Made by a program: the position numbers and the translations under genes. 64,000 nt of DNA from positions 217,372,001 to 217,436,000 of the forward strand of contig CM097885.1 in assembly GCA_044892525.1 (NCBI GenBank), read 5' to 3'. Each line of letters starts with the position of its first letter. The first letter of the stretch is position 1. Under the pieces are notes generated by a model. The model was given only the letters and a program-made list of their open reading frames with translations. It did not search any database and was not told the origin of the DNA. Below, piece after piece: positions 7,340 through 58,962 of this stretch. Origin of the DNA: Schmidtea polychroa. Taxonomy: Eukaryota.

Positions 7340-10300
7340 CGTTAGATGAACATTGAATACTGATATCGCAAGAATATATGAAGAACATGAGGATTGTTAC
7401 TGATTCGATTAATCATCTGATATAGAGGTGAAGCGATTCAATGTTCAACAAACGGCCGAGTTGATGATTGTAATATTGACATTTAAAATGATATATCTCC
7501 GGATTGAACAGATTTTTGACAAATTGATGAAATTACAGTTTGCATAGATTTTGAAATAAGTGGCAATGAAAAAATAAATATTTAAATAAATTTTTTGTAT
7601 ATTATATCGACAATGCTTTTAAAATTTTTAATTTAATAAAATAAAAAAAACAAAAAATAAAATTAAGTGTACATGCTTGGTTAACTAAAATATTTCTAAT
7701 ACTAAATATAATAATGCCTGTTTTGGAATTGTCATGGAATATTTGATTTCACTATCCCCTATATCAGCGGTTCTCAACCTTTCCCTTAGTTGTACCCCCA
7801 AGTGAAAAAGTATTTTTTGTGCGTACCTCTACCTAGAACAACATTTATAAATATTTATAAATGCACTAATAACATATAATTATATGCGTAATGAACAGTA
7901 CTAGTTGTAAACAAGCGAAAATTTAATCAATGCGAACATTGGGCTTGTTTTGAGCTGCATAATTTTGCAATGTCAGGCTTTAATTTTGTCAGTTTTGGAC
8001 GTAAATCTGGCTCAAGTTCAACTTTCGATCTGTATTTATTTTTAATTGACAACATTGCAGAAAATCCAGTTTCACAGAGATATGATGTACTGAAAGGAAT
8101 TAAAACTTTCAAAGCTCTGTCCGAAATTAATCCATATTCTCCTCTTCTTTTTAACCAGAAATCATTCAAGAAATCCTTGCTAAATTCACTTTTCAGTCCA
8201 TCATCACATGAAAGGTCGATGACCTGATCTCTTTCTTAGGTAGAAAGGTCAACTGGCAATTCAGCTTCAGCAAATGGATTTCGTATCCAACTTTTATCAA
8301 ACAAATTTTCTGGAAAGTAGGACCCGAAATTCAAAATCAATTGCAAACAATGATTTTCAATTTCTTCAACCAAGTCTGGATGCAGTGGAAGATCATTCTC
8401 TGTCAAAAATATTGACATGCCGCTATTTTAAAATATTCAACATCGGAATTCATAAGCGTAAGCTTCTTAATCATTGCATTTACTTTGTCAGCAACCACAA
8501 ATGGAGTTATATTTCGGCCTTGCAAACTCAAATTTAACTTATTCAGTTTACAAAAGATGTCAGCTAAATAGGCCAATCTCATTAGCCACAACTCATTCAA
8601 AAATAAGTCGCGTCTTTCATAGTTACTATCCATCAAAAACATTTGAGCTTCTTCACGAAGTTCAATGAGTCGATTTAACACTTTTCCTCGTTACAACAAT
8701 CCTACCTCTGTGTGCAAAAGAAATTTCTTGTGATCACTCCAAATTTCATTACACAATATTGAAAACATTCGAGAGTTGAGAGCCCGAGCTTTTCTGAAAT
8801 TAACTACTTTAACTGATTCGTTCAGAATGTGTTTTAAACTAGCAGGCATCGCTTTGGTAGCAAGAGTTTTACGATGGATACTGCAATGGGTAAACTTAAC
8901 TTCTGGTGCAACTTGTTGAATTTTGGTTACCACTCCTCCATGTTTGCCAGTAATTGCAGCTGCCCCATCAGAGCAAATTCCAACACAATTTAGCCAATTT
9001 ATTTCATTTACGGTCATGAAATCATCAATTTTTTTAAATATTTCTGTAGCAGATTTCCGACCAGGTAATGGCTCACAAAACAGAAATTCTTCTTCAACCG
9101 ACTGTTCAAATTCATACCTAACATACACCATCAGCTGTGAAAAGTTTGTAACATCTGTCCTCTCATCTAACTGAATCGCAAAGATTTGCTCTGCTGCATT
9201 TTTTGAGAATCGATTTAACTTGTGCTGCTAATTCTTCGAGAAACAGTACTATCTGACAAAGGAACGATATCCAGTTTCTTGGCAGCATTTGGTCCTAGTA
9301 CAGATGACATAATATCTTTTGCTTCAGGCAAAATCAGACTCTCCCCTATTGTATGCGGTTTTCCAATTTGAGCAATTCTCAGACTGACCAAATATCATGC
9401 CTCCAAGCTTTTCGAATTAGCTGATGTGAACAGCTTCAGTGTATTCCTACCGTTTTTTAATTCATTTTCTTTTCTTTTAAAAAATTCGAGTGGTTTATCC
9501 TTGAACATTTCATGCTTTGTGTTGGGCTAGAACTGATTTCTAGACCCAAACTTCTAATTATGACCGAAATGTGTAGGTACACAGCAAGTAAAAAAGCACA
9601 AAGTATAGTTAAATATTAAAATTACATCAAATAAACAATAGTAATTAAAGGAAAAACAACAAAAACCTAAAACACAGAAATTAAATAAAATTATACAAAA
9701 GCAAGAAGTGATGCAAAAATAGAACTCAAAAACAACCAAATAAACACAGATAAGCATAAAACAGACTCGAACAACTTAAAAGACGATAAAAACCGAAAAA
9801 ATTCCAGAAAAACCCAGAACATTCCATTAAAATGGCGATGACCATCACAAAAGCCAGCTAGAACAATAAAAGTTAGAGAAAATAAATAAATTAGTATTAA
9901 AAATAATAAATCTTAAAAAGAAATTCACAAAACATCAGTTTAAATGAAAATTGTATTAAAAATAAAATAGAATGTTCTGGAACCGTTCCAAATCCATCAC
10001 GAAAAATAATTAAAAAATAAAAATATAAAAATAAAAACAAAAATTATGGCACAAAAATTGCCATTAAAAATAGCAAAATCGTAAAATAGAAAATTCTGGA
10101 ATAAAAAGAATTCGAGTTTGTTTTAATGCATCAATACATACACGTGTACAAAATAGGTATATATACCGACACGTTTCGGGCATAATTTAGTCATTTATGC
10201 CAAAAATTTTTGTTGACCAAATTTTGAAGGAAGTAGGTATTTTTTTTTGATTGCATTGTTTTTATGTTAACCATGTATGTAATTATTTTAATGAACACCA

Positions 10301-11084
10301 TTCTATAATTAAATTATTCTTACTAAATTCGTTGTTATTTAGATAAATATGACTGATCAGCGGCGTCACTGTGCGTCGCTATTACGTCCTGCATTCGGGA
10401 ATATCGAATAAAAATTTTTTATGCAATCTACCAACATGCATTATTCGTACTATATTGATCGATACTATACGACTTTTTTTTGTTCGGGTCTTTCGGAGGT
10501 CGAACTATTTCATGGTCCTGCCATGGAGTTAGGTCGAGGAAAACCTCCGTCTGACTCTTTGTATTTATGTAAGGTCGACCGTAAATGGTTGACTCAACAC
10601 TCAACACTAAGGTTTGTGGAAGTGGTCACAGTGGGGCCATGGAAGCAATATTCTTCCCGACTTTGTACGTAATACAAATTTAAAATCAACATTAAAAATC
10701 AATGTCAAATATCTCTACAATAAGGTCTTAATCTGAGTAGAACTCATACCTAACCTTACACAATTCTGCAATCACCTTAATGAAGTCGGTTGATCAATAA
10801 TAGCCATTCCAGTTGTACTCAGACATATGCCGAATCCGATTTTGGTAATTGAAATTTGTAGTAACTCAAGTAATAGAAATGATAAAGTGTCCGGCATATG
10901 TGTGGGTATAACCTCATCTAGTTGGGACTTCGAGATTAATTACTATGCGAATAAATTCAATCTACCTATAGATATTACAAATCTAACCGATTAAATTACA
11001 GATCTATTAATTCAAGCGCCCATCTTAAATATTTATAAAGATGTTGATCAGAAAGGGTACTCATAAAGAAGTATACGAGTCGAC

Positions 11085-11760
11085 TATAAAATTATAAACC
11101 CTGAATTATGAAATGACGAGTGGTGAAGTAATAAAATGATAAATTGTAGAACCTAGAATTACTATTTATAAAGCATAAAATTACGGATTATAAAATATAA
11201 ATTTATAGATTACAAACTACGAAATTGTAAATAGAAAACGTAAAATTTCAAAGTACAAATTCGTAAATTGAAAAACATAAAACTATAAAAGATAAAATTA
11301 GAAATTATAGAATATAAACTTATAAATTGAAAAAAAAAATTAAAAACTATAAATCATAAAATGTAAAATTGGCAATTATAAAATATAAATTTATAAACTA
11401 CAAAATATAAAATTATAAATAGTAAAGCAAAATTATAAATTATAAAATATAAAGTTATAAATTATAATTAGTTATATATAAAATATTTAGGAATATAAAT
11501 TATAAATAATTATAAGTTCTAACTATAAGAGCAGGGAATACGAATAATTTGAGGTAAAGTCGTATTATAAAATATAATTTGTACCTAGGTATAACTACAA
11601 AGTATAAATGTAGAAATGAATTATAATTAGCTATAACCAAAATTTGACCATGAAGATATAAAGTACAAGTAGCTACCATAGCTTACATCGAAGCATTCGA
11701 CGTTAAAATTAGAAATGTAAATTAGTTTTGTTAAAATTATAAAGTATGAATTGAAAGTGA
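11085..11760. repeat. Degenerate AT-rich tandem array (AAATTATAAA-like units)
   Basis: Many imperfect ATTATAAA/AAATATAAA copies in succession. Confidence 0.65.
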
Positions 11761-11789
11761 TTATATTTCCAGTTATCATTCTAAATCGT

Positions 11790-11827
11790 CACCATTATTA
11801 TTATTAGTATCAGTATCATCTTTATTC

Positions 11828-11915
<88 letters not shown>

Positions 11916-12017
11916 CACTATCAATATTATAATTGATATTATCCTTATTATCATTATGATTATTATTATTATTATTAGTATTATCATTATTACCATTAAT
12001 GTTATCATTAAGATTAC

Positions 12018-12090
<73 letters not shown>

Positions 12091-12118
12091 TATTATTATT
12101 ATCATCATTACTACCATT
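11790..12118. repeat. (ATT)n microsatellite tracts
   Basis: Long perfect ATT runs at ~11828-11913 and ~12018-12100, ending at an assembly gap. Confidence 0.97.
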
Positions 12119-13346
12119 NNNNNNNNNNNNNNNNNNNNNNNNNNNNNNNNNNNNNNNNNNNNNNNNNNNNNNNNNNNNNNNNNNNNNNNNNNNNNNNNNN
12201 NNNNNNNNNNNNNNNNNNNNNNNNNNNNNNNNNNNNNNNNNNNNNNNNNNNNNNNNNATACTATCATTGTCCCTATTCATAAGTTGTAGTTCACAAAAAT
12301 GAAAATCTAAATCAAATATTGATTTAGGATTTCCTCCCGGAGCTAAATTTGGAATCAACCTTTTTGAACTAATAGGAATGACTGAAATACTAGAAGGTTA
12401 TTTTTAGCAACACCCCTCCCCCTAGAAAATGTTAACACCATCTAGGTTAGCTGAGAATATGGGTGGGAGTACCTGATCCAACATATAAACTACCCCCTTT
12501 AAATCCTGAATGAATGGCAAATATATAACTTCGTTTATTAGAAGATTAAATTACTATTAATAAAAACATAAGATTTTTCTTTTATTATGAACAACAAATC
12601 ATATTACCAAGCCACTAAGAATCAAAAATTATGAATCGTAGGATGATCTCCCAAAACTAGGCTCATCCATTTCCAACCAGGAAAAGTTATCATCCAACAT
12701 TCCTGGGAATCAAAATTTACGGTAAATAAATGAATTACCTCAAATGCATGAAAGTCGACTGTACCACTCATGACGAACACAACCAAGGGAGAGGTAAGCA
12801 AACGAGAAACTAAGCTCGTCGCTAATACCCATCACCCCGGCGTGCCCGAATTCAGTAGTAATTCGATAATTTCCAGAAAATGGCAAAGAATTGACATAAG
12901 AATTTTTAAATTACCAACTAGTGGTAAATAACTTTTGGTGAATAAAATAATGATTTAAAACAAAGTGACTTTTGGGGAATTATCGATCGGGGCATAAACT
13001 TTCTAGTATTAATACTCAACATTGAAAAAAATTTTTCTTTCATTTGATTAATTAAAAGGATGATAAAATTTTTCTTCCAATTAGTTAGTTAACAGGATAC
13101 CCAATAAATTAAATCGGAAGTTTCCCGTTAAATGTATGTATATTAATTATGATAGCTTTGATGATTAATTATTAAATGTATAGGCATTGATTGGGATAAC
13201 CTTGGTGATTAATTGTTGAATATATATACATATTAATAACTTTGGTGATTAATGCACTATTTGTGTAAAATGTTGTATATTTTATCGTACTTTAAATTTA
13301 TAAGTCACACGGGCTGCACACGGGTCTTAATATTTATATTACAGGC

Positions 13347-13712
13347 ATGTCGCAATCTAGCTCTAGCAGTGACGAGGGTACTGACCAGCAGACGATCACC
13401 CGTCTCCGGACCCGGTACATCTGGTACCATATACATCGGTGGGGTCAGGGAAGGGACCTGGATTGCGCAGCTTGAGTAATCCGGACGGGTCCCGAAGCGG
13501 ATGCCCCGGCATGGGTGAAGGTGGAGCCGGAGAATAACCGGTTGCAAGAGGCTCGAGATCAAGCGGCCTGGGACGTGGAAGCCGCACAGATTCGACTAAA
13601 GAAAATAGAGGCCCAAATCCGGGCCAAGCGAGAAGGAGTGTCCCTGGAGAAACTCGAAGAAGCCGAAGCAACTCCCCGAAAGAGAGGGAGGCCCCGCAAA
13701 CATCAGTCGTGA
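13347..13712 (+). CDS. Unknown small protein (121 codons, one in-frame TGA at 13473) with a short coiled coil and a C-terminal AT-hook
   Basis: MSQSSSSSDEGTDQQ..DCAA*VIRTG..LQEARDQAAWDVEAAQIRLKKIEAQIRAK..TPRKRGRPRKHQS. The GRP AT-hook core is flanked by K/R. Acceptor-like TTTATATTACAG lies 2 nt before the ATG. Visibly GC-richer than the flanks. Confidence 0.5.
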
Positions 13713-14036
13713 TTATTGGAGGACGATTAACGTAACCTAGTCTATTCCCTTAGTATTAGATATCGTCAAGTGTTTGTGTTTAAATAAAGTATTTTGATTT
13801 AGTCTATTTTATTAGTATCATAGTTGAGTATTAGAAACCGTAGAGTGGTTGTTCTTACGTAAAGTATTCTTCCTTTCTGTTGGTTGCATGAGTCAGTTGG
13901 TAGATGGAGGGGTTATAAAAATGGCCTAGCGATAAGCGCGAATAACAATATTATTTAATCTTACCAATAATTTATTCTATAAAATTTTTTTTTGGTATAA
14001 ACAAAACTAATGAGACTCCTTTTAGTGTACAAGCTA

Positions 14037-14495
14037 ATGGAGAACCTGCGTAAAGATCGAGAGCAGGCTCAGAAACGCGCTGACGAACTCCGAGTCCGAG
14101 TGGACAAATTGAAAGGAAAATGCCGGGAGTTCGAGGGGACCTGGTTAAGTCCCGAAGCGATGAAGAAGAAAACTGCCCAGATCCTCCAGCTACAAACACA
14201 GGCCGCTCAGGACCAAATGGAGATCCGCGCCCTGAAATTGCAGGTGCGGGCACTCGAGACCGAGCGAAATGAGCAGGTGGTGCAAGAGGCCGTGGCAAGA
14301 CAAATCCGGCCACTGACCGTTGAACTCGCGGCGATATATCCCCCAGCCGCCGAAAATAAGCCCAAAAGAAAACGGCTTGGGCGAAACATTCGGGAAAAAT
14401 TGAAGAAGGCCAGGCTGGCCGAGTACGAGCGGCAAGCAAATTCATCGCAAGCGTCTACGACGGGGTTGGCCAGCTCTACCAACAAGCCGAGTTGA
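14037..14495 (+). CDS. Unknown coiled-coil protein with a KR-rich NLS-like motif (ORF track starts at 14010; likely ATG 14037)
   Basis: Intact GC-rich ORF: MENLRKDREQAQKRADELRVRVDKLKGKCREFEGTWLSPEAMKKK..KPKRKRLGR. Homologous to 57781-58443 (see findings). Confidence 0.65.
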   Translation: MENLRKDREQAQKRADELRVRVDKLKGKCREFEGTWLSPEAMKKKTAQILQLQTQAAQDQMEIRALKLQVRALETERNEQVVQEAVARQIRPLTVELAAIYPPAAENKPKRKRLGRNIREKLKKARLAEYERQANSSQASTTGLASSTNKPS

Positions 14496-17266
14496 ACTTT
14501 TATTCTGGTTTATATATCCTTGTAGTGTGTTGTGAATATTTTGTAGTATTAAAAGAATATTTTTTTTGTTAAAATAATACATATTTCGTAGTACTAAAAT
14601 CATATTCGATATATTTTATGATTGCCTGAGAAATGAGAGTTTGTGCGTAAGGTTGGGAAAACAATTTTGATAAGGGACCTAAGAAATCGGACACACACCT
14701 TCTATCGGTAGTCCGTGAACCCATGGAGTACTCGACAATTACAGTGCCTCGATGCGCTCACTTTTTGCGAGTACTCAACCCTTGGTACAGTACCAACGTT
14801 GATTACTCAACGGGTACCAAGCGGAAAGACAATGTTGCATGTTGGGTTACGCTGGTAACAGCACTTAAACATTCGACCACCAGTAACCCACCATTTGTAT
14901 TGAAGTGACGCTGAGGTAGTGAAGGCTTCATCGAATGATTCGATAATTTTTCAGCACATATGACACATTGATGCTTTGAATTTCTTTCTTCGCCACACCA
15001 CGAAAATCCAAAAGATAAATAATTATCATCATATCGCTTAATTTTTGGCAGTTTTCGATTGTTATCATCTGAGTCTCGATGAGTTCTATCTTCACGGGCG
15101 TCTGCAGCTGTCTGTGTTGTTTCAGTGCTTGCGCGTGCGGCGCGAGAGTACTTTCTTTTTGACGGTTGTTGTTTGAGCCATTTATCCATATCTCAGTTCT
15201 GAAGTTATTTATTTAGTTGAAAATGTTAAAAAATCATTAATTATTTATTTCATATTGAAAATGTTTTACTGTTTTTCAATCGTTGGATAATATTACAAAT
15301 AGAGCGACGCTTGGCAGTGACATAGATTAACAAAGACCTTATACATTATGAAGTTATGAACCATAGAATTGCCAAAGACTATTTATTGAAGTTGATGCTA
15401 GTTATCGTTTATTTACAATTTAAATTTCAATATTCCAAGATTAACTGAATTAAATGAAGAATATTTATTTTAATTGCTAACGTTCTAAAATTGAAACATG
15501 ACGTCATACAGAACAAGAAATTCTTATCAACAAAAAAAATTATTATTGTAATTATTGTGTAACATTGGTAAGATCATGGGGTTGCGCGTACCCCTTTGCA
15601 ACAGCCGGCGTACCCCTAGGGGTACGCGTACCACCGGTTGAGAACCTCTGCCCTATATTATCCTAACCCTTATAATTAATGTTATGAATGACTGCATTTT
15701 GATTGATTGGGTCCTCACATTATGTCATTGTTTATTATTTATCCCAATGAAGTATGCACTGGGAACATGCATTTAGTCTATATAATGTCTACTTTTCGTG
15801 AGTAAAACTTTTTACGATTTGTTATTTAAACTTATTATAATGACAACATTATTTGTTCAGATATAGCACCTCAATACATAAAATGTATCATTACAGCCGC
15901 GAACATTTTCTATTGAATTTCACGTTTATCGAGTGACTTTGGATTACAAATGATAAACAAAATATTCCGAAATTTTAATAAAATTCTAATTTACTTTTTT
16001 ATTATTCATTAACATTTCTTCTTTTATGTGTAAAAAATAAATAAAAATAGCGTTACACGCAGAAAGACAGATGTAAATTAAGGGAGAATCTATATGACAT
16101 TTGAGCTGTATTGATAAATTAACATGAGTCGTTTTCCTGAGCTAAGTTGGATGTTCAGTATTTGTCAATTCCATCAAATTCTGCTGACACTATTTATACA
16201 GAAATGTTCCACAACACCTTGAATTAAATTTTGAAATCTAGGTCAGCAAGTTATGTGTATGATTTGAGCTTTTCTCAGTAATTAACAGTTTTACATAAAA
16301 TTGAACTTCTACCCTTAAATCAACATGGAGAAATGGAATAATGGTTCTGCATTATGGTACCTGTATTTTTTTAAAACTATTTTAAGGTTTGTATTCGTGT
16401 TTTTGTCTAGGCTTTTCATGTTTTATTGAGGCATTAATTATCATTTTATAAACCTTTTATCATTTANNNNNNNNNNNNNNNNNNNNNNNNNNNNNNNNNN
16501 NNNNNNNNNNNNNNNNNNNNNNNNNNNNNNNNNNNNNNNNNNNNNNNNNNNNNNNNNNNNNNNNNNNNNNNNNNNNNNNNNNNNNNNNNNNNNNNNNNNN
16601 NNNNNNNNNNNNNNNNNNNNNNNNNNNNNNNNNNNNNNNNNNNNNNNNNNNNNNNNNATAAAACTATTGTATTCTAAAATAATAATTGGTTTTTACTAAA
16701 TTAAATAAATTACTTTAATTTTAACAAAAGTTTATCAAATAGTTACCAAATAGTTGCGTGATAGGAAAAATTATGTGAATTTGTCTCTTCTATTCAAAAT
16801 GAAACAAAAAAATGTTTCTTAATTGGCGACTTTGTCTATTGGTATTGAATAAGCAAAAAAATCATCTGTTAGTGTGGTATATAAATGTGACAAAAAAAAT
16901 TTTGCTTCTATCAATTTTTCTATTTACATTAATACTAGTTGGTGGTCAACAAAATTAATTACATTGTACGTATTATAGAAAAACAATTATAAAAAAAATA
17001 GTATATGATATACAACTTTATGAGCTTGATGTAATTTTTTTCTATTTTGCAAAAGTATTTTGTAAACCTGTTTTATATTCTGTTGTTGACATAACTTCAT
17101 TAGTTGTTCGCGTCTCATTTCTTTTACTCGAATATTAAATTTTAGAAATTATAGTGAACCATCGCATATTTTATAATATAAGACAGTAATTTAGAGTTTT
17201 ATCAAAGAAAATACAACTTAATTTTGGATTAGTATATAGCTAATTATTCAATTTTAGATTTAGTTA

Positions 17267-19985: not shown

Positions 19986-20018
19986 CAATTTTTACTCCTT
20001 ATATACTTATTTTACTAT

Positions 20019-23000
20019 TGTAAGACTAAACGTTTTTACAAATTCTATTTTTACGACATTTTTATAATATTAAAACAACATTAATTGTTTAATATTACAC
20101 TATTCCTACATTCCCACCAGATTCATCTGAATCTTTAACAACTCTTTTTCTAATATTGGCCACGTGCCGCGGCATATCATATCCGCTACACCTGACTAAA
20201 ATTTTTTGTATTTGATAATGGTTTAATGATATGCCCGTCTTTCCATCTTTCTGTGCATTTTTGATTCAAATTCGTTTTTATCCACACTGGGTCACCAGCA
20301 GAATATTTTGCTTCGATTATTATCTCTTTTTTATTGTAGCTTGGCAGATTCAGCTTTGGAGTGTATCTAAATATGGCTCTAGATGGACAAATATTATTGT
20401 TGTTTGGCGTATTATTGAACCAGTACACAGTTTCTGAGATCGTTCCTGAGAACCTAGCTGCAAGCGATTTGATTGTCCGATGGCTGCGTTCAATGATCCC
20501 GTTTCCCGTTGGGCGGTTCACTGTTCTAAATACCAACTCAACATTCTATGTATCTGCTAATTCTTGAAATGTTCGAGATCTAAAAGATAAGTAATTATCT
20601 AATAATATTTCACTTGGAGCTCCTCTTTCATAAAGCACTTCATTTAAAGCATTACATATTTCTTCTACATTTTCATTCTTAATTTTCTTCCAGATTGCAT
20701 ATCTCGATGGTCCACAATCAGTAATTGTCAAATATTTATCTTTAGCAAATTTAGCTACATCAATAGCTAAACGGCACCAATTTTCATCACAGTTTAGTTC
20801 ACCTTTTTCCCACGTTGCTGGCGCTGGGTCAATTGATAGGCATTGATTACAACTTGCAATTATTTCTGAGATCTCATTATCCACATTTAGTAGCCCCGCT
20901 TCCGATGCTAAGAATCGCATACGATTTTTCCCTACATGGTAGTTCTTGTGAATCTATAATAACACATCTTTCGAGCTTTTTTGATTGCCTTAGAGCTGCG
21001 ACTTCTTTTTTAATAATCATCCAGTTGGCTGGTACTCTCGTTAATACATTAGCCTTGTTATTTTCTGTAGATACAAACTCAATGCCCATTTTAAGTTCAT
21101 ACTCAATCGCTAGATCTTTTAAAAGCTCCAGCCTTCGTCGTATATACAACTCTGAATTTGCTTTTGTATGTATTTTTCTGTCGCTTGATAATATGCTGTT
21201 AACCCAACACACAACTGATTTACTTTCGGATTTAATTTTGATGTACTTTAGATTCCATTTAATACATAAATTAATACCCTTCACAATCGCTTCTAATTCC
21301 ACCAAATTAATGTGCCTTGAATCATCAGGTTTTTGCAACCAACACGCATCTTCAACCACTGAACCTTCCATTTCTAATACAATTTCAATGGCGATCGAAC
21401 TTGCATCGCACCAAATTATGCCTGTCTGATTGCTGGGAACACTCCAAATACCTGACGATGGATCTCTTTCATTTTATTTTTCTAATAACCATTTTACTTT
21501 GTCAACGATATGATTTTCTATAGAATCATCCCAATTTCCACTGGATAGCGTCTTGATATATGAGCAGGCTGGCCGCAACCACGCAGGCACAGGATAAATT
21601 ACAACTAACTGCCCACATAACGAATACAGCTCTCTTCTTGAAACCCCTTTATTTAATTCATTTATTCGTATATCGTCTGATCTTTTCCAATGTAGTTCGT
21701 TATTCTTTTTTCGTTGGCGCAAAATTCAATCCAAATCCCATTCTCGTAAGCGCATATCTCTCCCAATTAACTATACAAGATTGATATCACCAAATGCTTT
21801 TATCCACGTGTATTTGCATATATGCATCAGATAAATCTAAAATTGCAAATTCTTTACTTAAACATCTCCATGATCGTAATTTTTCAGAACAGATATCTGC
21901 ATTCCCACTATATACATCAATATATTTATTGATACTCCTAAAGTCAAATACTGGACGCAATTTCGCTTTATTTAACTGAATTAATACCATAAATAGGTAC
22001 TGATCCGATAGGTCTGCCCATTGTTTTCTCGTCGTAATCAACTAGATAGCTGTTAGATATCCAAGAATTCAAGATACGCATCGTCTCCTGATCTTTACTA
22101 CAATTATCATAAAAGTTTGAATTTCTATTAGGTAGAAATTTTTGCGGCTCTGACTTCCAATTCCATTTGACAATCCATTTCTCGTTTTCAAATCTCGCAG
22201 AGAAATTTTCTTTCAATATTTCTGGCATACTATTACTATAGCACGCTACGTGACAAGGTGCTTCTTCGCATCCGAACATGACTTTTTATTCAATCGAACT
22301 CCACCAAACCTATTAATAGCATTCACTCCTAAAATTACATCATAATTGGATACTAATTTCAGGTATATTAAACAACCAATATTAAATAACTTATCTCCAA
22401 CCCATATATCAACTTTAATTCTCTCAACATATATGATTGAACCATCAAGCATCGCTACCGCAGTCATAGATTTTCGTGAATTTCCTTTTACTATAGTGTA
22501 GTGCTGCCCGAATCAACTAAAAATGCTTTTTACATCACCATTTACTTTTAGGAGCATCACATATTCACAATTCTTGGGGCCACACTCGACACATTGTGTA
22601 TAGCCCCTTGATCTTTTCCCGACTTGCAAAACCTTGAAATATGTCCCATAATACCGCATTTTGCACATCTGATATTGCGTCTTTCTGGACAGTATCTTAC
22701 CACATGATTAGCACTATTGCATATATAGCATTTTCGATTGGCTTGTCTTCCACTATCTGATTTCGGTACTACTACTGCAACCGTTCATTGTCATAAAATT
22801 GATGACTTTCGATTTTCTTTGCCTGAGCAGCTAACTCATTCATTGTTGACGCTGTTGACATCTTTAGTTGATTTGACAAATCACTTGGTAAGCTATTTAC
22901 AAAAAATCAGGTTAGTAGATCACCTGAACATTCGAACAGTGATCTTAATTCATTTACATGAACGTCCAAGTTATCACCCATTATCTTTTTCTGTAAAAGT

Positions 23001-23352
23001 TTCGTAAAGGCTTCTTGCTCGCTTATCCCGAAAGTTTTCAATAATTCCTTCTGCAGCATTCCAAAATCCATTGTCGTATTGCTTTTCTTTAACTGTTTGA
23101 AAACTGCATAAAAACTGCCCTTCGGGTAAAAAATGGCATTACATTCATGACATTTTTTACATTCTTGGCTTCCAAAATAATTTCGAGTTTGTCCAATCAT
23201 TTTTCCACATCTGTATTTTTGCCATAGAATTATCAATTATAATCTTGTTGATTTCCATTGCCCATATAGCTTGTAAGACTAAACGTTTTATAAAATTCTA
23301 TTTTTACGACATTTTTATAATATTAAAACAACATTAATTGTTTAATATTACA
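20019..23352 (-). mobile_element. Compact Ty3/Gypsy LTR retrotransposon (3.33 kb, 81-bp LTRs), defective
   Basis: LTRs 20019-20099 and 23272-23352 (TG..CA, nearly identical). Purine tract GGTGGGAATGTAGGAATAG before the 3' LTR. TSD CTAT/TTAT. Gag with two CCHC knuckles (~22620-22737: CYICNSANHVVRYC, CAKCGIMGHISRFC), protease VDSGS (~22510), RT (LRPVFDFRSIN..LDLSDAYMQIHVD), RNase H (WCDAS..HINLVELEAI) and integrase (AIDV..TDCGPSRYAIW..LDN..GNGIIERSHRTIK). Several frameshifts. Confidence 0.95.
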
Positions 23353-23531
23353 TTATTTCTACACCTATTTTATTGCGTTCACTAATATTGGTAGATAATT
23401 TTCACGAGCTTGAATACAGAAATGTTGAGAAATCCCTTCAAATTATGTTACATTACATTCATGATATTTAAGTTGATAAACAGAGATCACAACACAATCT
23501 AACCGAAATTTTAGACTTATTAATAAATATA

Positions 23532-26780: not shown

Positions 26781-27244
26781 AAGTGGAGATATGGATATTT
26801 GAATTAATTTTTTCAAATAAAGGATTTGTCACGTTTTTTGAAAAATTAAAAGCTTGTGAATAATAATAAATTTATGACGAATTTGCAGAATTTTAAAATC
26901 GAGTTGGATTTAACTATAATAATTGTATTTTTTTAAATATTATTAACAGATGCTTGGGATCAACACTTCATAAATGTAGAATAATAATAATAATAATAAA
27001 TGATTACAATAATAATAATAAAACATGATAAAAATATAAGAATAATGAACGTCACATTGTCAATACCTCCTTTATAATTTAATTATTATTTAATTATTAT
27101 AATTTAATTATAATATTTTCAACTTGATAAGTTAAAAGTATATATTTAAAATTAAAGTTTTAATATCAAATGTAAAATAAATTAATTTTAAATATTTGTT
27201 TAAATAATCTAAGTAATTTTTTTGAAATATTTAATTCAAAAATT

Positions 27245-28979
27245 ATGCATCGGCATATTAGATCTCCCGGATTTAGAGATTCTTATTCTCCTGCCAATAT
27301 TTCAAAAGGAAATCACGAATATGACAGAAATTCTAGACAAACTAATCGCTATAAAGATAAAATACGATCATTATGCATAAGCAATATTCCTAATAAAATT
27401 TCGGATCCATTTTTAATAAATTTTATAGAGAAGGAGTTTTCACGTTTTGGAGATTATAATCTTAGTATTGCTCCATTCAATGGAGAGAGAGTTGCATATG
27501 TTAATTACAAGTATGGTTCAGTCTTGTTTATTAACCAATCATTGTTTGAATTAAAGAAATTCAGAAGATGCGGCAGAAGCTTTAGAATGCCTTCAAAATT
27601 TGGAAGTAGACTCCCGCTTAGTTACGATTACACCCGTATTTGCAAATTTACGACGCCATTCTCCACAAGTACAACATCGTCGGTCTAGATCTCCAGTACC
27701 TGTCAGGTACAATCGAAATAATCACAAAATTTTACACCGAGAGTCATCATCGGAAATTTCTGAAAGACGATCCCGATCTAATAGTCTGCGTATTGGGTAC
27801 CGAGATAAAAACCAATATGACACTTTACCAACGCGAACTTTATTTTTGGGAAATCTCAGTTATGATGTTGATGTTGAAATTCTACGAAGAAAATTTGAAA
27901 AATGTGGTGATATTAGTGACATTGACATCAAACGACCTGCTATAGGAAGACAAGGAAATACATACGCGTTTATTAAGTATGCGACTCTTGATATGGCTAC
28001 TCGTGCGAAACATGAACTTGATGGTCAATTTATCGGTGGAAGTCAAGTAAAAATTGGTTACGGTAAACCTCTTCCATCAACCTGTGTTTGGATTGGTGGT
28101 TTGGGTCCTTGGGTGATATTTGAAGAATTAGAACGAGAAATAATTCGATTCGGCAATGTCAAAAGAATAGAATGGCCACGCAATAAAAACTATGCATACG
28201 CTATTTATGATACTGTAAGCGATGCTGTCACAGCAGTTGAAAATTTACGAAATGTTTCACTTGGTAATGAGCACAAACGATTAAGGGTTGACTTTTCTGA
28301 TATGTCTTATTTTACATACGACTGTAAATTGGATCGATATCATAAAAAATCCCGAAGGTCAATTTCAAAGCCCTACAACTCTCCTCAATCTAAACCAAAA
28401 ATGTCTTTAGAAACAGCTAAAAATACTCTCCAATTGGCAGATTGTCTACGCGGAATCTGGACTGGGAAAATAATTTTGAAGAAGAATAATTTCGGTTGTA
28501 AATTTTATAAATTCAAGGGAGATGATTCGTTAGTGACGGATTTTATGTTTGAAGAAAAACGTAACTCTTTCCATCCTATTCCATTGGCCCTTACTATAAC
28601 ACAGAGAATGGTAATCGATTCAGAGAAAATAAAGGAAATCAGAACACGGATAGATTCATTGAGGAGTCGGGAATATTGTATCATGTTTGCAACGTCATTC
28701 GTTCTAAATACAACTCTAATGGACGACGCGCTCCACCCTCACAAACCGATCCAAAATTTAATTGATTATCTACGATTAAAAAACAGTTCAGGAGTCGTTT
28801 TTCTCAAGTCGAACTCATCTAATAATTCCGATGTGTCGAAAGGAACTCTGGCTCTTCATATTTTCCCGCCGTGCGATTTTGTATTCGATATTTTAAACTG
28901 CAAAGCTCCGAACTTGATACAAAAATGTATGATGGATGATTTTGTATTGATTTTATTAATGCAGCACGTTGTTGTTTAA
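27245..28979 (+). CDS. RBM15: RBM15/Spenito-like RNA-binding protein (3 RRM + SPOC), 562 aa; exons 27245-27510 and 27557-28979
   Basis: A 46-bp GT-AG intron (27511-27556) joins the two track ORFs in frame (..AYVNYK|NSEDAAEAL..). RRM2/3 motifs PTRTLFLGNL..YAFIKY..KIGYGKPLPSTCVWIGGLGPW and LRVDF. C-terminal SPOC-type region with ..LHIFPPCDF. Confidence 0.93.
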
Positions 28980-29341
28980 ACTGCTGTATGAGTGTATGTA
29001 TATGAAAATTGTTCGCTATATTCATTGTAATTTCCAATATATTATTTTTTTGTAATTTATTGATTTTGAATTTCATATAGAATTAATTTTTTCTGATTAT
29101 TGTATTGTCTTCTTATATTTGTCAGTATTGAAACAAACATTTTTCTTTAAATTTTATAAGTTGTTTCTGGTTAATTAATATAAAATTATATTTTATATTT
29201 AACGATCATATAATATATGCGATTATTTTAGTAATTAACTTGGTAAATAAAAATTGTTAGTCCATCATATTATTACTCGAAATAAATTGGCATCCATTGT
29301 CAACGTTAAAGCGTTTTGAATTTGCGAAAAGGCCACTAGAT

Positions 29342-29590
29342 CAGTGGTGGCCAACCCAAATCAATCGAAGGGCCAAATTTTCGGAAAAATACTATCACGG
29401 GCCACAATAAATTCATTTAAATAAATAATACTTCGTTTTTACGATTCAAGTAAACTTAGAATTAATTTTTTTAATTAAAAACATGCTTAATTCGAATATG
29501 AATTCTAAAAAGACAATTATTGATTTGATGTTTAAAATTGTGTCCGGGCCACATCAAAAGGCTTCGCGGGCCACCGGTTGGCTATGGCTG
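29342..29590 (+). mobile_element. 249-bp hAT MITE, copy 1
   Basis: Ends CAGTGGTGGCCAACC..GGTTGGCTATGGCTG. TSD CACTAGAT/CATTAGAC (6/8). Near-identical inverted copy at 49023-49271. Confidence 0.9.
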
Positions 29591-40100: not shown

Positions 40101-43100
40101 GAATATTTGGTAACTTTAAATATATTATAATTTATATCTATATGAAATTCTGTAGTAATAAAAATTTACTATTAATTACAAAGCAAAAACACCAAATAAT
40201 AGAAATATATAAATCAGTGTCAACTGCTATATAGGGAAACCAACAATAATGCAATATGATATAATGAATTAATTAATTAAATAATTTCAATAAATTCGTT
40301 AAGATGGAATATAAATTGTATGGAATTTTATGTACATGTAAGATTATATTTATCTTCATTCTTTCAAACTATAGATCAATATATTAAGTAGAAAACAATA
40401 CATTGTTCCCTGATCTGAAAGAATAATGATCAAAATTGTAAATTGCAAATCAAAGAAAAATTTTAATGACAATTTGTATTTTTGAAAATTATCGAATTTT
40501 GAATACAATTTTTGATAAAATTTTTATTATAGAATTTTTTATCGCCGCTAGAAATATTTACCTCTCTCTTCGCAGCTGCTATTCATGATTATGATCATCA
40601 AGGAGTGACAAATAATTTCATTGTTGACAACAAGTAATTTCTTTATAATATTAATTGTTTCAGTACTTTGTCTTAAAAATTCTCGGTTTTTGTGTTTTAA
40701 TTTACTAGAAGTTAAAATCTATTCCCATTTTCTTCTTTACGAGACAATCTTATTTTTATTCGTCATATATTGTACAGTGCATATTTTATTGTTTGCCTAC
40801 AATCTTTTTGTAAAATTCTTTATCTTTTTCACTATTAATCTTTTTTTTCAATTTCATTTACCTTTATTTCTTTGTTTTAGATTATCGCTCAATATTTTAA
40901 GTTTAACTTGAACTTTCGGCACGTCCGTTTTTGAACATTTTAAAAATGGGAGTAAAAAAATTCACGTTAAAAGTAAAAAATATAGTGGTAATCGGTTATA
41001 GTTAAAGAATTGGTTATAATAAAAAGAAAATAAAATCCATGTAAAAATCATTTATAATTTTTTCAAAATCACCCATAAATGAAAAGCAAAAGAAAAAGTA
41101 TTAGTATTGAAAAGTTAAATATCATTCACGAGGTCGAAAATAGCACTTAAAAGTGAAGCAGCAAGAAAATATGGCATCAGCAGTTAAGTCAGTAATGAAG
41201 AATAAATCAAAAATCATCTTACAATCTAAACACAACAACAAAAGATCGAAAATACGATACTGGTGCTATAAAAACGTAGAAGATACATTATTTATTTGGT
41301 TCAATGAGAAGAGAAATCAAAGTATTCCAATATCATCAGAACTATTATCAATGCAAGCTGAGAATATGGCAGTTGCAATGGGCATCAATGATTTCAGGTG
41401 TAATCCCAGCTGGGGTCAAAGATTTCGGTCACGTTATAACATAGTCCTTGGTGTAGTTTCTGTCGATTCTGAACATGCCGATACAACTTCTGCTCGTAAT
41501 TGGGTGGGAAATACGTGGCCAATGTGTAGTGCAGGTTATCAAGCAAACGTTTTTAACGGAGATGAAACGGGGCTTTTTTATAAAATGTTGTCAAATATAA
41601 CATTAAAGTTTAAGGGAAAGAAGTATTTCAGGGGAAAATTATCGAAAGAGAGACTGACAATTTTTGTACGCGTCAATGCACTAGGTGAAAAGAAAGAACT
41701 TGTGATAATTGAAAAGCTAAAAATCCAAGATGTTTAAAAAATGTGCACAGTTTACCAATTAAATATTTTAGCAATAAGAAATCTTGGATGACATCGTGTT
41801 CTTATATCTTGGGATTTTGAGCTGGTTAGTAAGAACAGGAAAATTCTATTACTTGCAGATAATTGTTCCTATTATCCTGATATTCAAAATAAACTAAAAA
41901 ACATTAAAATAGTCCAGCTACCTCCGAATTTAACGAGTATTCTACAACCAATGGACCAATGGTGATAAGAAACTAAAAGATTTTTTATAGGAAATTAATT
42001 CCATTGAAAAAGGAATGAAGTTCAAAACAACTATCATGGATGCAATTTTAAATATTAACAGGGCTTGAAAATCATAACCTGTGAATATATTTAGAAGTTT
42101 TTTGATAAAGCTGGAATTTTAATAAACAATATTGATGATGTGGCAAATGAGAATGAGATGCCACAATCTCAGGAAATTGATCCCCAACTTGTTGATTTCT
42201 TTGATATAGATAATGATTTATCTTGTCACGGAACATTAAATGATGATGAAATTACCTAGGAAGTTGCATTTCAGAGGGATGAAGTTGAATATTGTAATGA
42301 TTTGGACCGGGAGGAAGATAAAGTAGTGAATGAACATGAAATTCTAATGTTTTTGCAGGATATTGAACGATATTTAATTGTTAATGATGCTTTAAGTTTA
42401 CCAATTGTTGATTCTTTAGACGTCCTTAAAGCATATTTTGAAAGAAAACTTTTCAAATCAAAGTCGGTCCAGAAAAGAAAAAAAGGATTATCTCAAATAA
42501 AATTCATGGTTAATAATATTGTTGTGTTTTTATAGACCTAGTAAATGTCTGCTTTACGATTACTATTCTGTAATATTGAATTTAATTTTTTATACTCTAA
42601 TATTGTAATACAAAATATAACATTGTGTTGTTATTTCATATTTATGTTAAATCGGTTATATAGCCGGTTTCCACTGTATTGATCAATAGTCTAAGAAAAG
42701 AAATAAAACCTTTTCATTCATATAAATATTTGTGATAAATATTCTTTTATTTCAACCAAGAAAGGTCTTATATAAAATATTACTTAAAAATACATATGTT
42801 TCAGTTACTTTATTGTTAAGTAGTGAATGAATCCGTTTTCTATTGCTTTATAATTTTATTCAATTGCTTTATAAAAGAGTTCTGTTTTTTTTAATAACCG
42901 TCGAAATTTATTTGAACGAATTTTCAGTTTAATAAAAATTTAACTATAATTAGTTTTTTTTCAGTTTAACAATATACTATTTTTTTTAATATTTTAATAA
43001 TTTTTTTATATTTTTTAATTAAATTTTAATTATTAAATTTAACAGAATTAAAAATTTCCCCCTGGGTGGAAATTTTTAATTCTGATCTATTATTTTTACC

Positions 43101-54327: not shown

Positions 54328-55329
54328 GATATGGAAATTGGAATCACCAATAGAAATTCCCGTTGATAAAAGGAGAGAGACCGTTTATGATTGGTCGAGA
54401 AAATAACAGTAAAGAATCAAGAAGAAATTAAGTTCTAATAAATATTAAATTATTAATTATTGAAAATAAAATTCATGAGAATTAAACAAGAAAATATATA
54501 TATTGTAGTTCCTTGGAAATAATGAAAAGTTAATATATTAATACTGACGCTAAAGTGATGTAATATTAATGAGATTTTTGATTGACCATAACCTCTTATA
54601 ATTATTGTTTATAAATGCGCCTGTATGTTTTCTTGAATGTTGAATGTTTGAGTTTTTTATTATTTATTCCAAAGATATATAATGATACACGTGCTGTAGA
54701 TAACAACATGTTTCATGCATAATATTTGTCATGAATGTATTTTTAGCGTAGTTGTTAATTATTTTAATTTCATTAATAATTTTGATAATTATTTTCAACA
54801 ACATACTTTTTAAGGCTTCATTGATTTCATCATTCAACCAACTTTTGACTTATTTTCCAATGTCAGTGAAGCGATATTGAACCAATTTCATTCTAAACCC
54901 GTCGGTAAAGAAAAGATTCTCAAAAAAATTAAACCGAAAAAAGGAATAAATAACCTCGTTATGCGTAAGATTTGTTGTAACATAATTCATAATGTTTATT
55001 GTTGATGAAAATTTAATACACTCATCCCCCAAATTTACACAATTTCTCTTTTACAACGGTTTTCAAACTAAAAAAAGTTTTGCACATTTGAGAGAGTTAA
55101 AAAATATTTACTGTATTGTTATGGTGTATTTTGTTTCTGCCGTTCGTTAACATTTAGGTATTGTTCCGCGAGAACTTGGACAATACAAGAAGAGCATAAA
55201 CAAGTGAAAGTGTGAAATCTTACATTTGTTGGTCTCGAAGCCATAAAAGCTGGAATGGAGTTGTGAGAGCTTTCTGTTTTACAAATAACTTAAAAATTAG
55301 ATACCATATTAAATAAAATTAAGCGAAAT

Positions 55330-58300
55330 AGCTAAGTGTGAAAGAAAATTAAGTAGTTAAATGGGAAAAACAACAATCTAAAAAAACAGCCTAAGGAAAC
55401 CACCAACAAACCCCAAATCAGGCAACCATAGCAAACAAATAAAGGAAAATAATTAAATGAGATAACAACAAAACAGCGGAGGATCAAAATAAATAAGAAA
55501 ATAAAAAAAAGCCAGCATAAAAACATAAAATAAAAATAAAAGAAATTAAAATAACAAACCATACGCAGAATTATCAATAGAAACCCACCAAAAACTAGGA
55601 AAATATAAAAATTAAATAAATGAATAGAATAATTAAATAAAACAAATAAATAAATTAAGAAAAACAAATAAAAATCCAAAAATAAGGAAATAATGAAAAA
55701 TACACCCTAACTAAGTCCTGATTGGACGAAAAATACTATATAAAGCGGTAACTTAGTTAGTTCGCTTAACTTCTAAAAAAACTTCGACAGATAAAAATTT
55801 TTTAATAAAATGTAACTTCTAAAAAAACTTCGACAGGGAACTTCAACCAGGAACTCTAAGAAACTTATACGACCGGACTACAATCAATATTACTATATTA
55901 ACTACTATAGCTAGAACCTAGAAATTTTCAGCGGAATTTCGAGAAATACATTTCAGTCTACAACGATTTTAAAACACCGGAGCAATTGCCACAAACTCAT
56001 TCAGTGAATTTTGAGATAACAAAATTGGAAATTTGGAATTGAGATAACTAAATTTTTATTTTTAATTTTTATCATTATGAATTATTAATCATTGTAACTG
56101 TATTGATCAAAATATCATGAACTTGTTTATTTTAATTTTTCTTCACGGAACCCGGCGACGATACCGTTTGGACAGCTGTACATGATCTCGGGCACTATCA
56201 AAAAAGTGATGATGAAGTGCAATTATGAATTCCGAGCGTTATGAAATTTCAACAGGACTCGAATGTCGTTCATGGCACGGATTATAAATCCTAATAAAAA
56301 TTGTCGATTTGGTGAGAAATTGAATTGAATGCCTCGACATTGAGGTGATGGATAGATTCGGGAGTATCATGTGCAGAGGCAAAGGGTATGGTCACTGGTA
56401 AGAATTTATATATAATATTTCAATATTTCGAAGTAGTTTTATGATTTATGATTATATATGCCAATAGGGTTGAACCGTCTAACACGGTCGTTCGATAATA
56501 GTCGGTACTTGTACTGGTAGTTTTCGAGTGAACCATGCGAGGTAGAGAGACCGAGAGTAGATTGACAATTTCTGGAATGACGAGAAGAAGGTTCGGGGTA
56601 GATATGCGAATAATATCATCATGGACGATAAATCTAGGAAGTTTACAATATTTTGCATGCATAAAATTGTTGAGCGTAAAACGGCCACTAAAAGCATTCT
56701 GCCGACCTTTTTCGTCCAAATTCAGCGGATAATCCAAAAATCCATTTCTGCTAAGGGCTAGTATATCTTTCCATTATTTCTTAAAGATTCTGTTTGCTAT
56801 TCGATAACAAGGATTCCACGGCCAGCACTTAGATGCAGTTGGCGATCACATATAGATTAGTGGCAAATTTTCGCATAGATTTCAGTTTGCACATCAGTCT
56901 CGTTTAAGTTACCAATACGCGGTGAATATTTCGTTGCCGTAAAATTCTCCAATAGACACGATCATACATTTCGTCGAGAAGTAAACAAAGTTAGTTAATA
57001 ATTTTATAGTCACTTCCGTTTGAATCGAATAAATTTAGTTTATGGACATTGCTAATAAACATACAGAGAACCAACCATGACCATAGACTAGCTGTGTACA
57101 ATATACTTCCCTAAGCAAATCCGTCATCTGGTATAACAATCATCATTAACAGTTTCTCTTAAAAATTTTCTCATTAAAACCAATATTCAGGATCGACGAC
57201 CGGATAAACTGTCTATATGTGCATCTCCAAATAAACAAATTCTGATGATAAATAAATATCGAAAGTCTCGCATTAAATCCACCTTATCAATGATAGAACA
57301 AATAAATAAATACGAAATCGCAAAATTTAGAAAATTAAATTGTAAAATCTACACCTATATGAGATAGGCATCGAATTAGTGGTAGGTCGTATGGCAAGTA
57401 TCAATGATTTTCGACAAGCTAATTAACATGTAACAATTAACGAACATTTATCTGAAATTTTAATTTATTATGAACTCGAGTTCCGAAACAGGTGTTAATG
57501 ATAATAAGGGCATAGTGAAATTCAACCACTAAATCATGACCCACTTATATAGTTTTCTATTTATTCAAGTAACTGTCTTATTTGTTGATTGATCCAACCA
57601 TTCCCGCCATTAATTCACTCAGCAGTATAAATTTCCGCGCCAAATGTATGAAGGTGAAAGTGAAGGATGAATTTTTCGACTAAATTTGAATTCCTGAGTG
57701 ACCGAGAAAGTGATAAGAGCGTCTGAGTAGGGTTGAGATAAGTTCATTGACGAGGCATAAATTAGTTATTCTATTTAGATATGTCCGAGCCTAACTTACC
57801 TCCACGCGGGCCGAGACCGTGTTTCTCGTGCGCCGATAAAAACGTGGATATCAGGAAACTACACGAGCACATAGGGGTTCTCAAAAAGCGTATCGAGACG
57901 CTAGAGCACACGTGGTTCTCCTTGCCACAAATGAAGGAAGAGAAAATGAAGATTCTCAGATTAGAGCACTGTCGTGACAGTCTCTTAGAAGAAATTCGCT
58001 GTCAGCGACTAACCATCAAAGCACAATCAAAGGCCCTTCATCAGGTCTACACAGAGTCTGAATTACGGAAGAGGGTTAGAGAATACCCAATCAAGGACGG
58101 GGTAAATGCATTCCCGCTTCATCATCGAGCGGATAAAACGGACGTCCCATTATTGTCGAACTGTGCGGGACATGGGCCCGATCTTCCGAAAATCATAGAC
58201 GCCATCCTAAGCGGGGCGGCTGCAACTCCTCCTTCTATACATATTCTCCATGAGTCGCTTCACCGTGTTCCCTCAGTCAATATCAGTCAACCATTTAGCA

Positions 58301-58600
58301 TAAGAAACGAAAACGGCCGTCAAGCCGAACTTCAAAGAGGAGAGAAAAAATGGAAGCGCTCGAAGCATCGTTATTCGCTGCTCAGTCAGCGATTCCCAAA
58401 GCCAATACTAACCCCCAGCCAGCGATATCCCATGACACCTTAAGAGTGATCTCTTCAGCAACAATGACCCCACCAAAAGACCCTTGGCTGCAGGTTGACA
58501 TTGATGCCCTGTTGACAGAAGGAGATGTGATGTAGGGAGGTGATTCGGCCAAAGTACCTTGAACTACTCGATAATTCCACTCGTCGCGGATGAAGACTCG
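55330..58600. mobile_element. Unclassified ~3.3-kb intronic block resembling the 9525-14893 insert (boundaries approximate)
   Basis: A-skewed left block, TATA-like TATATAAAG and a 24-bp direct repeat, decayed GC-richer interior, and a GC-rich coiled-coil ORF on the right. No TSD or TIR found. Confidence 0.45.
57781..58443 (+). CDS. Unknown 220-aa protein: CxxC, coiled coil, basic C-terminal patch
   Basis: Intact, visibly GC-rich ORF. Acceptor-like TTCTATTTAG 2 nt before the ATG. Homologous to 14037-14495. Confidence 0.6.
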   Translation: MSEPNLPPRGPRPCFSCADKNVDIRKLHEHIGVLKKRIETLEHTWFSLPQMKEEKMKILRLEHCRDSLLEEIRCQRLTIKAQSKALHQVYTESELRKRVREYPIKDGVNAFPLHHRADKTDVPLLSNCAGHGPDLPKIIDAILSGAAATPPSIHILHESLHRVPSVNISQPFSIRNENGRQAELQRGEKKWKRSKHRYSLLSQRFPKPILTPSQRYPMTP

Positions 58601-58962
58601 CAATATTGTTGATAATATAAATGATAAAACTTCGTATTATATATGAAAATGTATGAGGATATTTGAAGATATCGATTATTTCAATGAAACCCTTGCCAAT
58701 ATCAAAACTGATATAAAAAATTCAGCACTTCTATTAAAAGAACTTTGAAAAATCTCTCATCAACCTGTACAATCGAAATTAGAATCATAAAACTCTGCAA
58801 ACAACTTAATAATATTTAAATTTTCATTATTTATTTTGAATTATTTTATAAATTATTTTATATTAAAATTTCGAAGGATAATAAAAACTCAATATTTGTG
58901 AAAAATTTATTTGACCTACATAAAATAATTGGTGGTGTACATAAAAATACTAGAAATTTTAG

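Follow-up and report, generated by a model that had tools for sequence, protein, structure and literature searches.

Two co-oriented open reading frames (ORFs) in a 64,000-nt stretch of Schmidtea polychroa DNA (hereafter the window) sit in the solo long terminal repeat (LTR) of a Burro-type giant gypsy element, and both are under strong purifying selection. We consider it fairly likely that they are conserved accessory genes that can reside in a solo LTR and that owe their expression to cis-splicing, with a single short first exon encoded in the same repeat (Table 1). In the copy carried by the window, ORF1 is dead and ORF2 is intact.

Table 1. Features of the solo LTR and of a second Burro-type LTR, in window coordinates
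Feature	Position	Strand	Remarks
Left 4-bp target-site duplication	9516..9519		tttg
Solo LTR, Burro-type giant gypsy element	9520..14893	+	5,374 bp, TGTTGGG...CCCACCA; sharp ends common to 17 copies
A-rich 5' part of LTR, likely U3	9520..10156	+	AATAAA signals ~9881-9890; tracks with element body
TATA-like box, predicted promoter	10157..10166	+	start inferred ~30 nt downstream
Predicted short first exon	10187..10232	+	start approximate; weak ATG 10197; ends in A
Predicted common splice donor	10233..10238	+	GTAGGT here, GTRAG in most alleles
GC-rich conserved block in predicted first intron	10477..10666	+	candidate structured RNA element
ORF1 splice-acceptor-like site	13333..13344	+	AG (13343-44) 2 nt ahead of ATG
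ORF1, 121-codon helical protein with C-terminal AT-hook	13347..13712	+	broken here by TGA 13473-13475
AATAAA past ORF1	13783..13788	+	possible polyadenylation signal
ORF2 branch-point-like CTAAT and acceptor	14007..14025	+	AG (14024-25), then TG
ORF2 exon, long coiled-coil helices and Lys/Arg-rich helix	14026..14495	+	intact; ATG 14037 in window allele
Hairpin-rich conserved 3' end of LTR	14644..14893	+	
Right 4-bp target-site duplication	14894..14897		tttg
Decayed, 3'-truncated LTR of second Burro-type family	55227..58615	+	end approximate; TATA 55737
Acceptor AG (57777-78) and ORF 57781-58443	57777..58443	+	distant ORF2 homolog

A DNA search of the organism's own genome returned 1,705 candidates, of which 40 were scored; 18 of these, the window copy included, match the 2.4-kb query at 95–100%. 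When longer flanks were compared, the sequence common to the copies spanned window positions 9520 to 14893, a unit larger than the two-ORF span described in the earlier note. Both TG..CA ends are visible in 17 of 20 copies, and the 4-bp target-site duplication (TSD) is exact in 16 of these 17 and has one mismatch in the seventeenth; the duplicated sites show no strict target motif. The 14-nt LTR end has 832 matches in the genome (control, 0), 209 of which are followed by the internal leader, and the matches often form same-strand pairs about 30 kb apart. The insertion splits a decayed hAT-type transposase on the minus strand (7927–9519 and 14894–15192), whose two halves are continuous and whose distal part gives a weak match to the hAT dimerisation domain (Pfam, E 0.001). 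Relative to its siblings the window LTR lacks 271 bp at 11041, and its predicted intron holds a degenerate 7/22-nt A/T tandem repeat (11131–11486) and an (ATT)n tract (11794–12110).

Four complete two-LTR relatives were found, each about 34 kb long (33,893 and 34,077 bp for element totals; internal region of 25.35 kb in copy B), with 4-bp TSDs and 4.3-kb LTR pairs that are 99.95–100% identical. All four contain a polyprotein frame of about 4,790 codons, unbroken in two (copies B and D), and the copies scanned with Pfam gave matches to CCHC, MATH, a mononegaviral-type fusion glycoprotein, protease, reverse transcriptase (RT), RNase H, integrase and ankyrin in the polyprotein and to RING, TRAF/MATH and BIR-RING in the accessory ORFs, whereas BCL2, SUMO and dUTPase motifs were absent from these Pfam matches. 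The LTRs of the complete elements are sister alleles of the window LTR (80% identity over matching parts), and each holds both ORFs. Among the loci examined, no complete two-LTR element had exactly the LTR allele of the window; elsewhere in the genome, in a tandem array, a window-type allele adjoins a primer-site leader and a body about 95% like copy B up to pol. A tandem array (L055–L060, G000:C1:39.42-39.48 Mb) has a period of 15.8 kb, and in it window-type LTRs with ORF1 deletions, together with the leader, alternate with another repeat.

Some features of the internal region recur in the two families described here. The primer-binding-like site (L104:6451-6476), presumably tRNA-Pro-like, starts 8 nt past the LTR end in the first family and about 6 nt past it in the second, and a conserved GC-rich motif without a purine tract precedes the 3' LTR in both (L108:3762-3801, L200:3498-3537). 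The leader between the RING ORF and gag (L135:6180-7700) is long and GC-richer, contains internal direct repeats and several TGATGA boxes, and gave no Rfam match. The gag frame is open for 103 codons (L105:3159-3467) and 185 codons (L197:2041-2595) ahead of its first Met in the two families, respectively, which suggests a non-AUG or spliced start.

According to the accessible text of the literature, Burro (GYPSM1; Jurka 2007; Grohme et al. 2018) exceeds 30 kb, has an internal region of up to about 25 kb and encodes a polyprotein of about 4,900 aa in the order CCHC, MATH, env-like domain, PR-RT-RH-IN and ankyrin, with a BIR domain present (PMC6431247). Our elements share the total length of more than 30 kb, the internal region of about 25 kb, the giant polyprotein with an env-like domain before the protease, and the BIR, RING and TRAF accessory ORFs; the parent element thus matches the published Burro type by description, the comparison being with published accounts. 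The plant Ogre elements, as described in the accessible part of the same source, likewise combine multi-kb LTRs (1.9–6.5 kb) with extra ORFs, but these are described in the internal region and not in the LTR (PMC6431247). In the accessible portions of the published Burro descriptions we found no protein-coding genes in the LTR, no common donor and no splice-made start; LTR ORFs may be shown in the figures of the review PMC6431247, in Grohme 2018 or in its supplement. Burro itself is already known; genes inside its LTR and the expression scheme proposed below are undescribed in the accessible text of the literature searched (PMC6431247, PMC11410931, PMC8532177, PMC2585583, PMC12582326, PMC6673714).

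ORF1 extends from the ATG at 13347 through a terminal RKRGRPRK to a stop at 13710–13712, and ORF2 (14037–14495, 152 aa) includes the motif KPKRKRLGR; the earlier note had read both frames, and the single TGA in the former, correctly. It had also described the ORFs as richer in GC than the DNA around them, and GC content is indeed 58% in ORF1 and 55% in ORF2, versus 30% in the AT-rich spacer and 29.5% in the window. A corresponding excess of CpG did not hold up: the observed/expected ratio is 0.89 in ORF1, 1.05 in ORF2 and 1.02 in the window. Since this ratio is close to 1 throughout, the CpG richness of the ORFs merely follows their GC content, and we rejected a separate enrichment.

The reading of the earlier note depended on conservation of the ORFs among copies, and such conservation is present. 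The dN/dS ratio is 0.13 for ORF1 (368 pairs with dS 0.8–5, from 37 distinct full-length copies) and 0.06 for ORF2 (259 pairs in the same dS range, 48 distinct full-length copies), values that refer to sets restricted to open frames, from which saturated pairs were dropped (83 for ORF1, 491 for ORF2) but which still include two or three frameshifted copies. Of the 20 close copies, 13 have a full-length ORF1, two have a late frameshift in it and five have it stopped; ORF2 is full length in 14. The TGA at codon 43 of ORF1 occurs in only three of these 20 copies (the window and one duplicated locus) and the codon is open in the other 17, as a comparison proposed in the earlier note could reveal; we therefore regard this TGA as a lesion. 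Readthrough or recoding of the TGA was rejected on the same counts.

The RGRP core is present in all 14 aligned ORF1 alleles, nine of which match the AT-hook family PF02178 at E<=1, the first member scoring 15.5 bits against a Pfam cut-off of 17.4. This invariant core with basic flanks resembles that of HMGA-type AT-hook proteins (PF02178); ORF1 differs from them in having a single hook, below the curated cut-off, on an unrelated helical body. Its predicted structure consists of two long helices and a disordered tail (pLDDT 68, pTM 0.30). For ORF2, helices are predicted at residues 2–33, 39–89 and 116–136, the last being Lys/Arg-rich (pLDDT 80, pTM 0.36). Protein searches with intact ORF1, with ORF2 and with the ORF2 alignment gave no match that reached E<=0.01 inside the length limits. 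In PDB sequences ORF1 had 0 matches and ORF2 matched generic coiled coils only; the Atlas search gave no usable match for ORF1 and a best value of 0.88 for ORF2; and Foldseek with both predicted models gave nothing at E<=0.001. No homology of either protein to a characterised regulator was found in Pfam, PDB sequences or Foldseek, nor was a match to a host gene found, and we set a host-gene origin aside as improbable.

A profile search with ORF2 gave 16 matches at E<=0.001, and in seven of the 14 that were read an arginine-rich motif, N-x-RRRERR, occupies the place of the basic helix. This motif may resemble the arginine-rich motifs of Rev-type proteins. Twelve of the 16 distant ORF2-exon matches, which are public gene models, contain an unrelated domain; these fusions are most likely prediction artefacts, i.e., chimeric gene models, and annotators should be aware that a distant homolog of the ORF2 exon may look joined to an unrelated host domain in such models. 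One tape-measure protein among the matches is expected to be a chance coiled-coil match.

A TATA-like core is present in all nine aligned LTRs, at LTR nt ~640–655, beyond which the LTRs diverge, and its 20-nt motif has 1,585 matches in the genome versus 1 for the control. When 55 distinct segments were clustered at 80%, a donor motif lay at +76 to +88 from the TATA box in 20 of the 21 clusters; shuffled sequences yield the motif anywhere in 110 nt in 13% of cases. The donor pattern had been widened to GTAGGT after the window was seen, and two of the 20 clusters depend on that form. Because the clusters are mutually related, p values here and below are optimistic. The base before the donor is A in 19 of the 20 clusters, compared with 22 of 81 for the background. 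In the window copy itself, the first-exon region is 7 nt shorter than in close siblings.

The sequences upstream of ORF2 are similarly constrained. Fifty-nine contexts, which form 25 clusters, have an AG at one offset in 23 of them, the two exceptions being a mis-registered match and a member of the second family. The AG is followed by TG in 22 of these 23 clusters, while the ATG at codon 5, the start codon in the window, is found in only eight. A fixed AG and TG with so variable an ATG indicates that ORF2 is an exon entered in phase 1, which in turn predicts an upstream exon that ends in A; the start of ORF2 is thus probably supplied by cis-splicing. The exon-1 ATG stands in a weak context. 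In 10 of 19 clusters, among them that of the single G|GT allele, its frame has no stop and is in phase 1. Counted by phase, the frame is open in 10 of the 11 clusters with phase 1, as opposed to two of eight in other phases (Fisher p 0.006, optimistic for related clusters). The remaining nine of the 19 have a stop or another phase, and on these grounds we rejected exon 1 as an obligatory coding exon. As the exon-1 frame is nonetheless open and in phase in many clusters, ORF2 can start either at the junction or within exon 1.

Acceptor-like AGs ahead of the ATGs, noted earlier at 13343–44, 14024–25 and 57777–78, are all present, and the pattern extends to the body of the element: the seven internal accessory ORFs each have an AG 0–3 nt ahead of an ATG, which for one of them is the first Met in copy D and the second in copy B. 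As a background, an AG precedes an ATG in this way in 30 of 125 cases in the element and in 16–17% in the window. We think it rather probable that transcription starts about 30 nt past the TATA box at 10157 and that an exon of about 50 nt, ending in A, would be joined to ORF1, to ORF2 and to the seven internal acceptors. The start codon of ORF2 would then come from the junction (A+TG) or from an in-frame ATG in exon 1, and both genes would be placed in an R/U5 of 3.6–5.4 kb. A start codon made by splicing has a precedent in Drosophila gypsy env, whose donor and acceptor, according to the accessible text, jointly supply the ATG of a subgenomic mRNA (PMC2585583). In gypsy the join is AT+G and serves an env gene outside the LTR (PMC2585583), whereas the join predicted here is A+TG, with both sites in the LTR and one donor for nine ORFs.

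The RNA-derived material can be read in more than one way. None of the runs recorded as RNA contains this stretch. Among assembled contigs of runs that we guess to be RNA (X1, X6 and X7), no GT..AG joint was found in the 15 of 49 joints listed. Run X1, also guessed to be RNA, gave no spliced joint in its contigs, and one X1 contig covers the spacer at 13812–14016, which marks it as unspliced RNA or DNA; splicing of ORF1 and ORF2 is what we infer from sequence. Contigs of X6, likewise guessed to be RNA, have poly(A) loose ends (1, 2 and 7 contigs) at LTR nt 353–392, in A-rich DNA upstream of the predicted start; these may be the ends of accessory mRNAs or artefacts of internal priming. Two short junction motifs for spliced retro-copies had 0 genome matches each, a result that we regard as neutral because the intron may hold a needed signal.

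Comparison of the parts of the LTR with the rest of the element bears on the position of its internal borders. Across 24 elements (276 pairs), ORF2 alleles have a median nucleotide identity of 73%, versus 96% for the internal RING ORF. The stretch from LTR nt 1 to 50 nt past the TATA box tracks the element body (rho 0.67–0.73) and the remainder tracks the ORF2 allele (0.68–0.94), in a set of 13 loci from about six lineages, duplicates included; across LTR alleles, the equivalent of 9520–10156 is 88–95% conserved. These values would fit a U3 that ends near the TATA box, a short R, and a gene-bearing U5 that is exchanged between elements, e.g., at first strand transfer, albeit in few lineages.

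Three other accounts of how these genes are expressed or where they came from have to be weighed against cis-splicing. The same LTR genes might lie on a polycistronic transcript that, like those of flatworm operons, is cut up through spliced-leader trans-splicing, with one cut per acceptor, a reading that we disfavour and consider improbable. Planarian spliced leaders end in AUG, and so do those of parasitic flatworms in the accessible text (PMC12582326). Joined at AG|TG, such a leader would not share the reading frame of ORF2, and an ATG at the start of ORF2 is missing from 15 of the 23 allele clusters although its N-terminal 41 residues are conserved across alleles. Trans-splicing would also leave the positionally fixed A|GT donor unexplained. 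What speaks for it is an operon-like layout, with acceptors 0–3 nt before each ATG and AT-rich spacers, and its occurrence in planarians; in the accessible text, moreover, flatworm acceptors for spliced leaders often double as cis-splicing sites (PMC12582326). It is about equally improbable, in our estimate, that the ORFs belong to U3, with the 3' LTR of full-length elements as their sole source of expression in the manner of nef or sag, or that both ends of the genomic RNA fall in the first ~400 nt and an additional, internal promoter accounts for the TATA box at 10157, in which case solo LTRs would be silent or expressed from that promoter only. The X6 poly(A) ends, which lie beside a conserved AATAAA, favour this arrangement, but the way in which the parts of the LTR track body and allele fits a U3/R/U5 border near the TATA box.

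The earlier note had likened the ORFs to accessory genes of Terminons and of DNA-virus-derived elements. Its view of them as mobile-element genes with conserved acceptors stands; the class does not, and we give Terminon, Penelope-like or DNA-virus ancestry almost no weight. The co-oriented coiled-coil and AT-hook ORFs and the absence of an RT nearby had pointed that way, but RT, RNase H and integrase, in gypsy order, and a fusion glycoprotein lie in the internal region of the full-length copies, and the elements are therefore neither Penelope/Terminon nor DNA-virus derived. The TG..CA ends, the 4-bp TSDs and the paired copies around a gypsy gag-pol refute that assignment by LTR anatomy; furthermore, two 10-kb stretches of a full element had 0 Rfam matches, hammerhead included, at E<=1, and no viral fold was matched by either protein. 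A proposal of another kind, compatible with cis-splicing but in our view doubtful, is that ORF1 and ORF2, instead of regulating transcription or export, are anti-silencing, host-manipulating or integration-site helpers, with the AT-hook tethering the element to AT-rich DNA. Divergence is far more rapid among the LTR alleles than in the body, as would be expected in an arms race (the ORF2 and RING identities given above), and other accessory ORFs are IAP/TRAF-like; in the accessible text of two reports, Burro is derepressed upon PIWI loss (PMC8532177) and a captured chromatin reader is described for CopiaMBD (PMC6673714). Against it, ORF1 and ORF2 are under purifying, not positive, selection, and the TSDs lack a strict target motif.

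If cis-splicing is the correct account, possible roles for the two proteins follow. Since one donor feeding nine acceptors needs an export route for unspliced RNA, we lean towards RNA export as the role of ORF2 and action on the promoter as that of ORF1, hypotheses that each fall short of an even chance. ORF2 may oligomerise through its coiled coil and, through its basic helix, bind unspliced element RNA for nuclear export, by analogy with Rev/Rex-type factors; its RNA target would probably be the structured block in the first intron. ORF1 may bind the A/T-rich U3 through its AT-hook and regulate the LTR promoter. In the fold of the intron block, 97.4% of cells are paired and only four of 38 pairs change on both sides, a number of covarying pairs reached by 214 of 500 shuffles; Rfam gave no match for the block. 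For ORF2, Pfam, PDB sequences and Foldseek gave no match of Rev/Rex type. Genes that overlap the LTR, and regulators, are familiar from complex retroviruses (MMTV sag, HIV nef, foamy tas/bet, Rev/Rex/Rem), where the genes in the LTR occupy U3 and are expressed from its 3' copy. Our elements would share with these viruses small spliced accessory genes and, as a working analogy, the pairing of an oligomeric export factor with a basic helix and a DNA-binding transactivator, although no sequence or fold homology to their regulators was detected. They would differ in the predicted place of the genes, which is R/U5, downstream of the promoter, and in that a solo LTR holds them complete.

The ORF at 57781, which the earlier note had connected with the cassette, is indeed related: it is an ORF2 homolog in the LTR of a second family. 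It is 20% identical to ORF2 and shares TW(F/L)SP..MK with it, and intact members of the family also have the basic motif. This family, too, forms pairs, with a spacing of about 26 kb. The 4.2-kb LTRs of three elements are 100% identical, with one 254-aa ORF and no ORF1 match, and the one element scanned with Pfam has the same kinds of body domains as the first family. The G|GT donor-like sites of this family, whose ORF has its own ATG, fit the splicing model but come from a single lineage.

Several other features were seen elsewhere in the window. A host gene with RRM and SPOC domains (27176–28979, plus strand) is one that we take, by domain layout, to be Spenito/RBM15-like. A small decayed LTR element lies on the minus strand at 20018–23363, where 93-nt direct repeats (95%) flank broken gag/pol-like frames, one scanned fragment of which gave no Pfam match. 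A repeat of about 255 nt forms an inverted pair (29336–29590 and 49023–49277) that is 19.4 kb apart and 89–95% complementary. The window also contains fragments of a Tc5/pogo-type DNA-binding domain (41144–41737) and of a hAT dimerisation domain (45292–45852), and an exon of a cyclic-nucleotide phosphodiesterase (52621–53037).

Solo LTRs are usually taken as non-coding promoter relics, and here each of hundreds of copies can hold a predicted promoter and first exon together with two genes under selection, in the kind of genome that is used for studies of stem cells and piRNAs. If the splicing model is true, even lone repeats would be small self-contained gene units, the expression of nine accessory ORFs by a 34-kb element would be explained, and a Rev-like export problem, together with its solution, would be predicted outside the vertebrate retroviruses. 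As a speculation that goes well beyond this, Burro elements could be invertebrate complex retroviruses, with the LTR as a self-contained regulatory gene unit: a mini-exon in a multi-kilobase U5 would feed at least nine acceptors and make the start of a Rev-like export factor whose RNA target lies in the common intron, an AT-hook protein would serve as transactivator, about 20 deeply diverged alleles of the cassette would be swapped at first strand transfer between near-identical bodies, and these regulators could be provided in trans by hundreds of solo LTRs.
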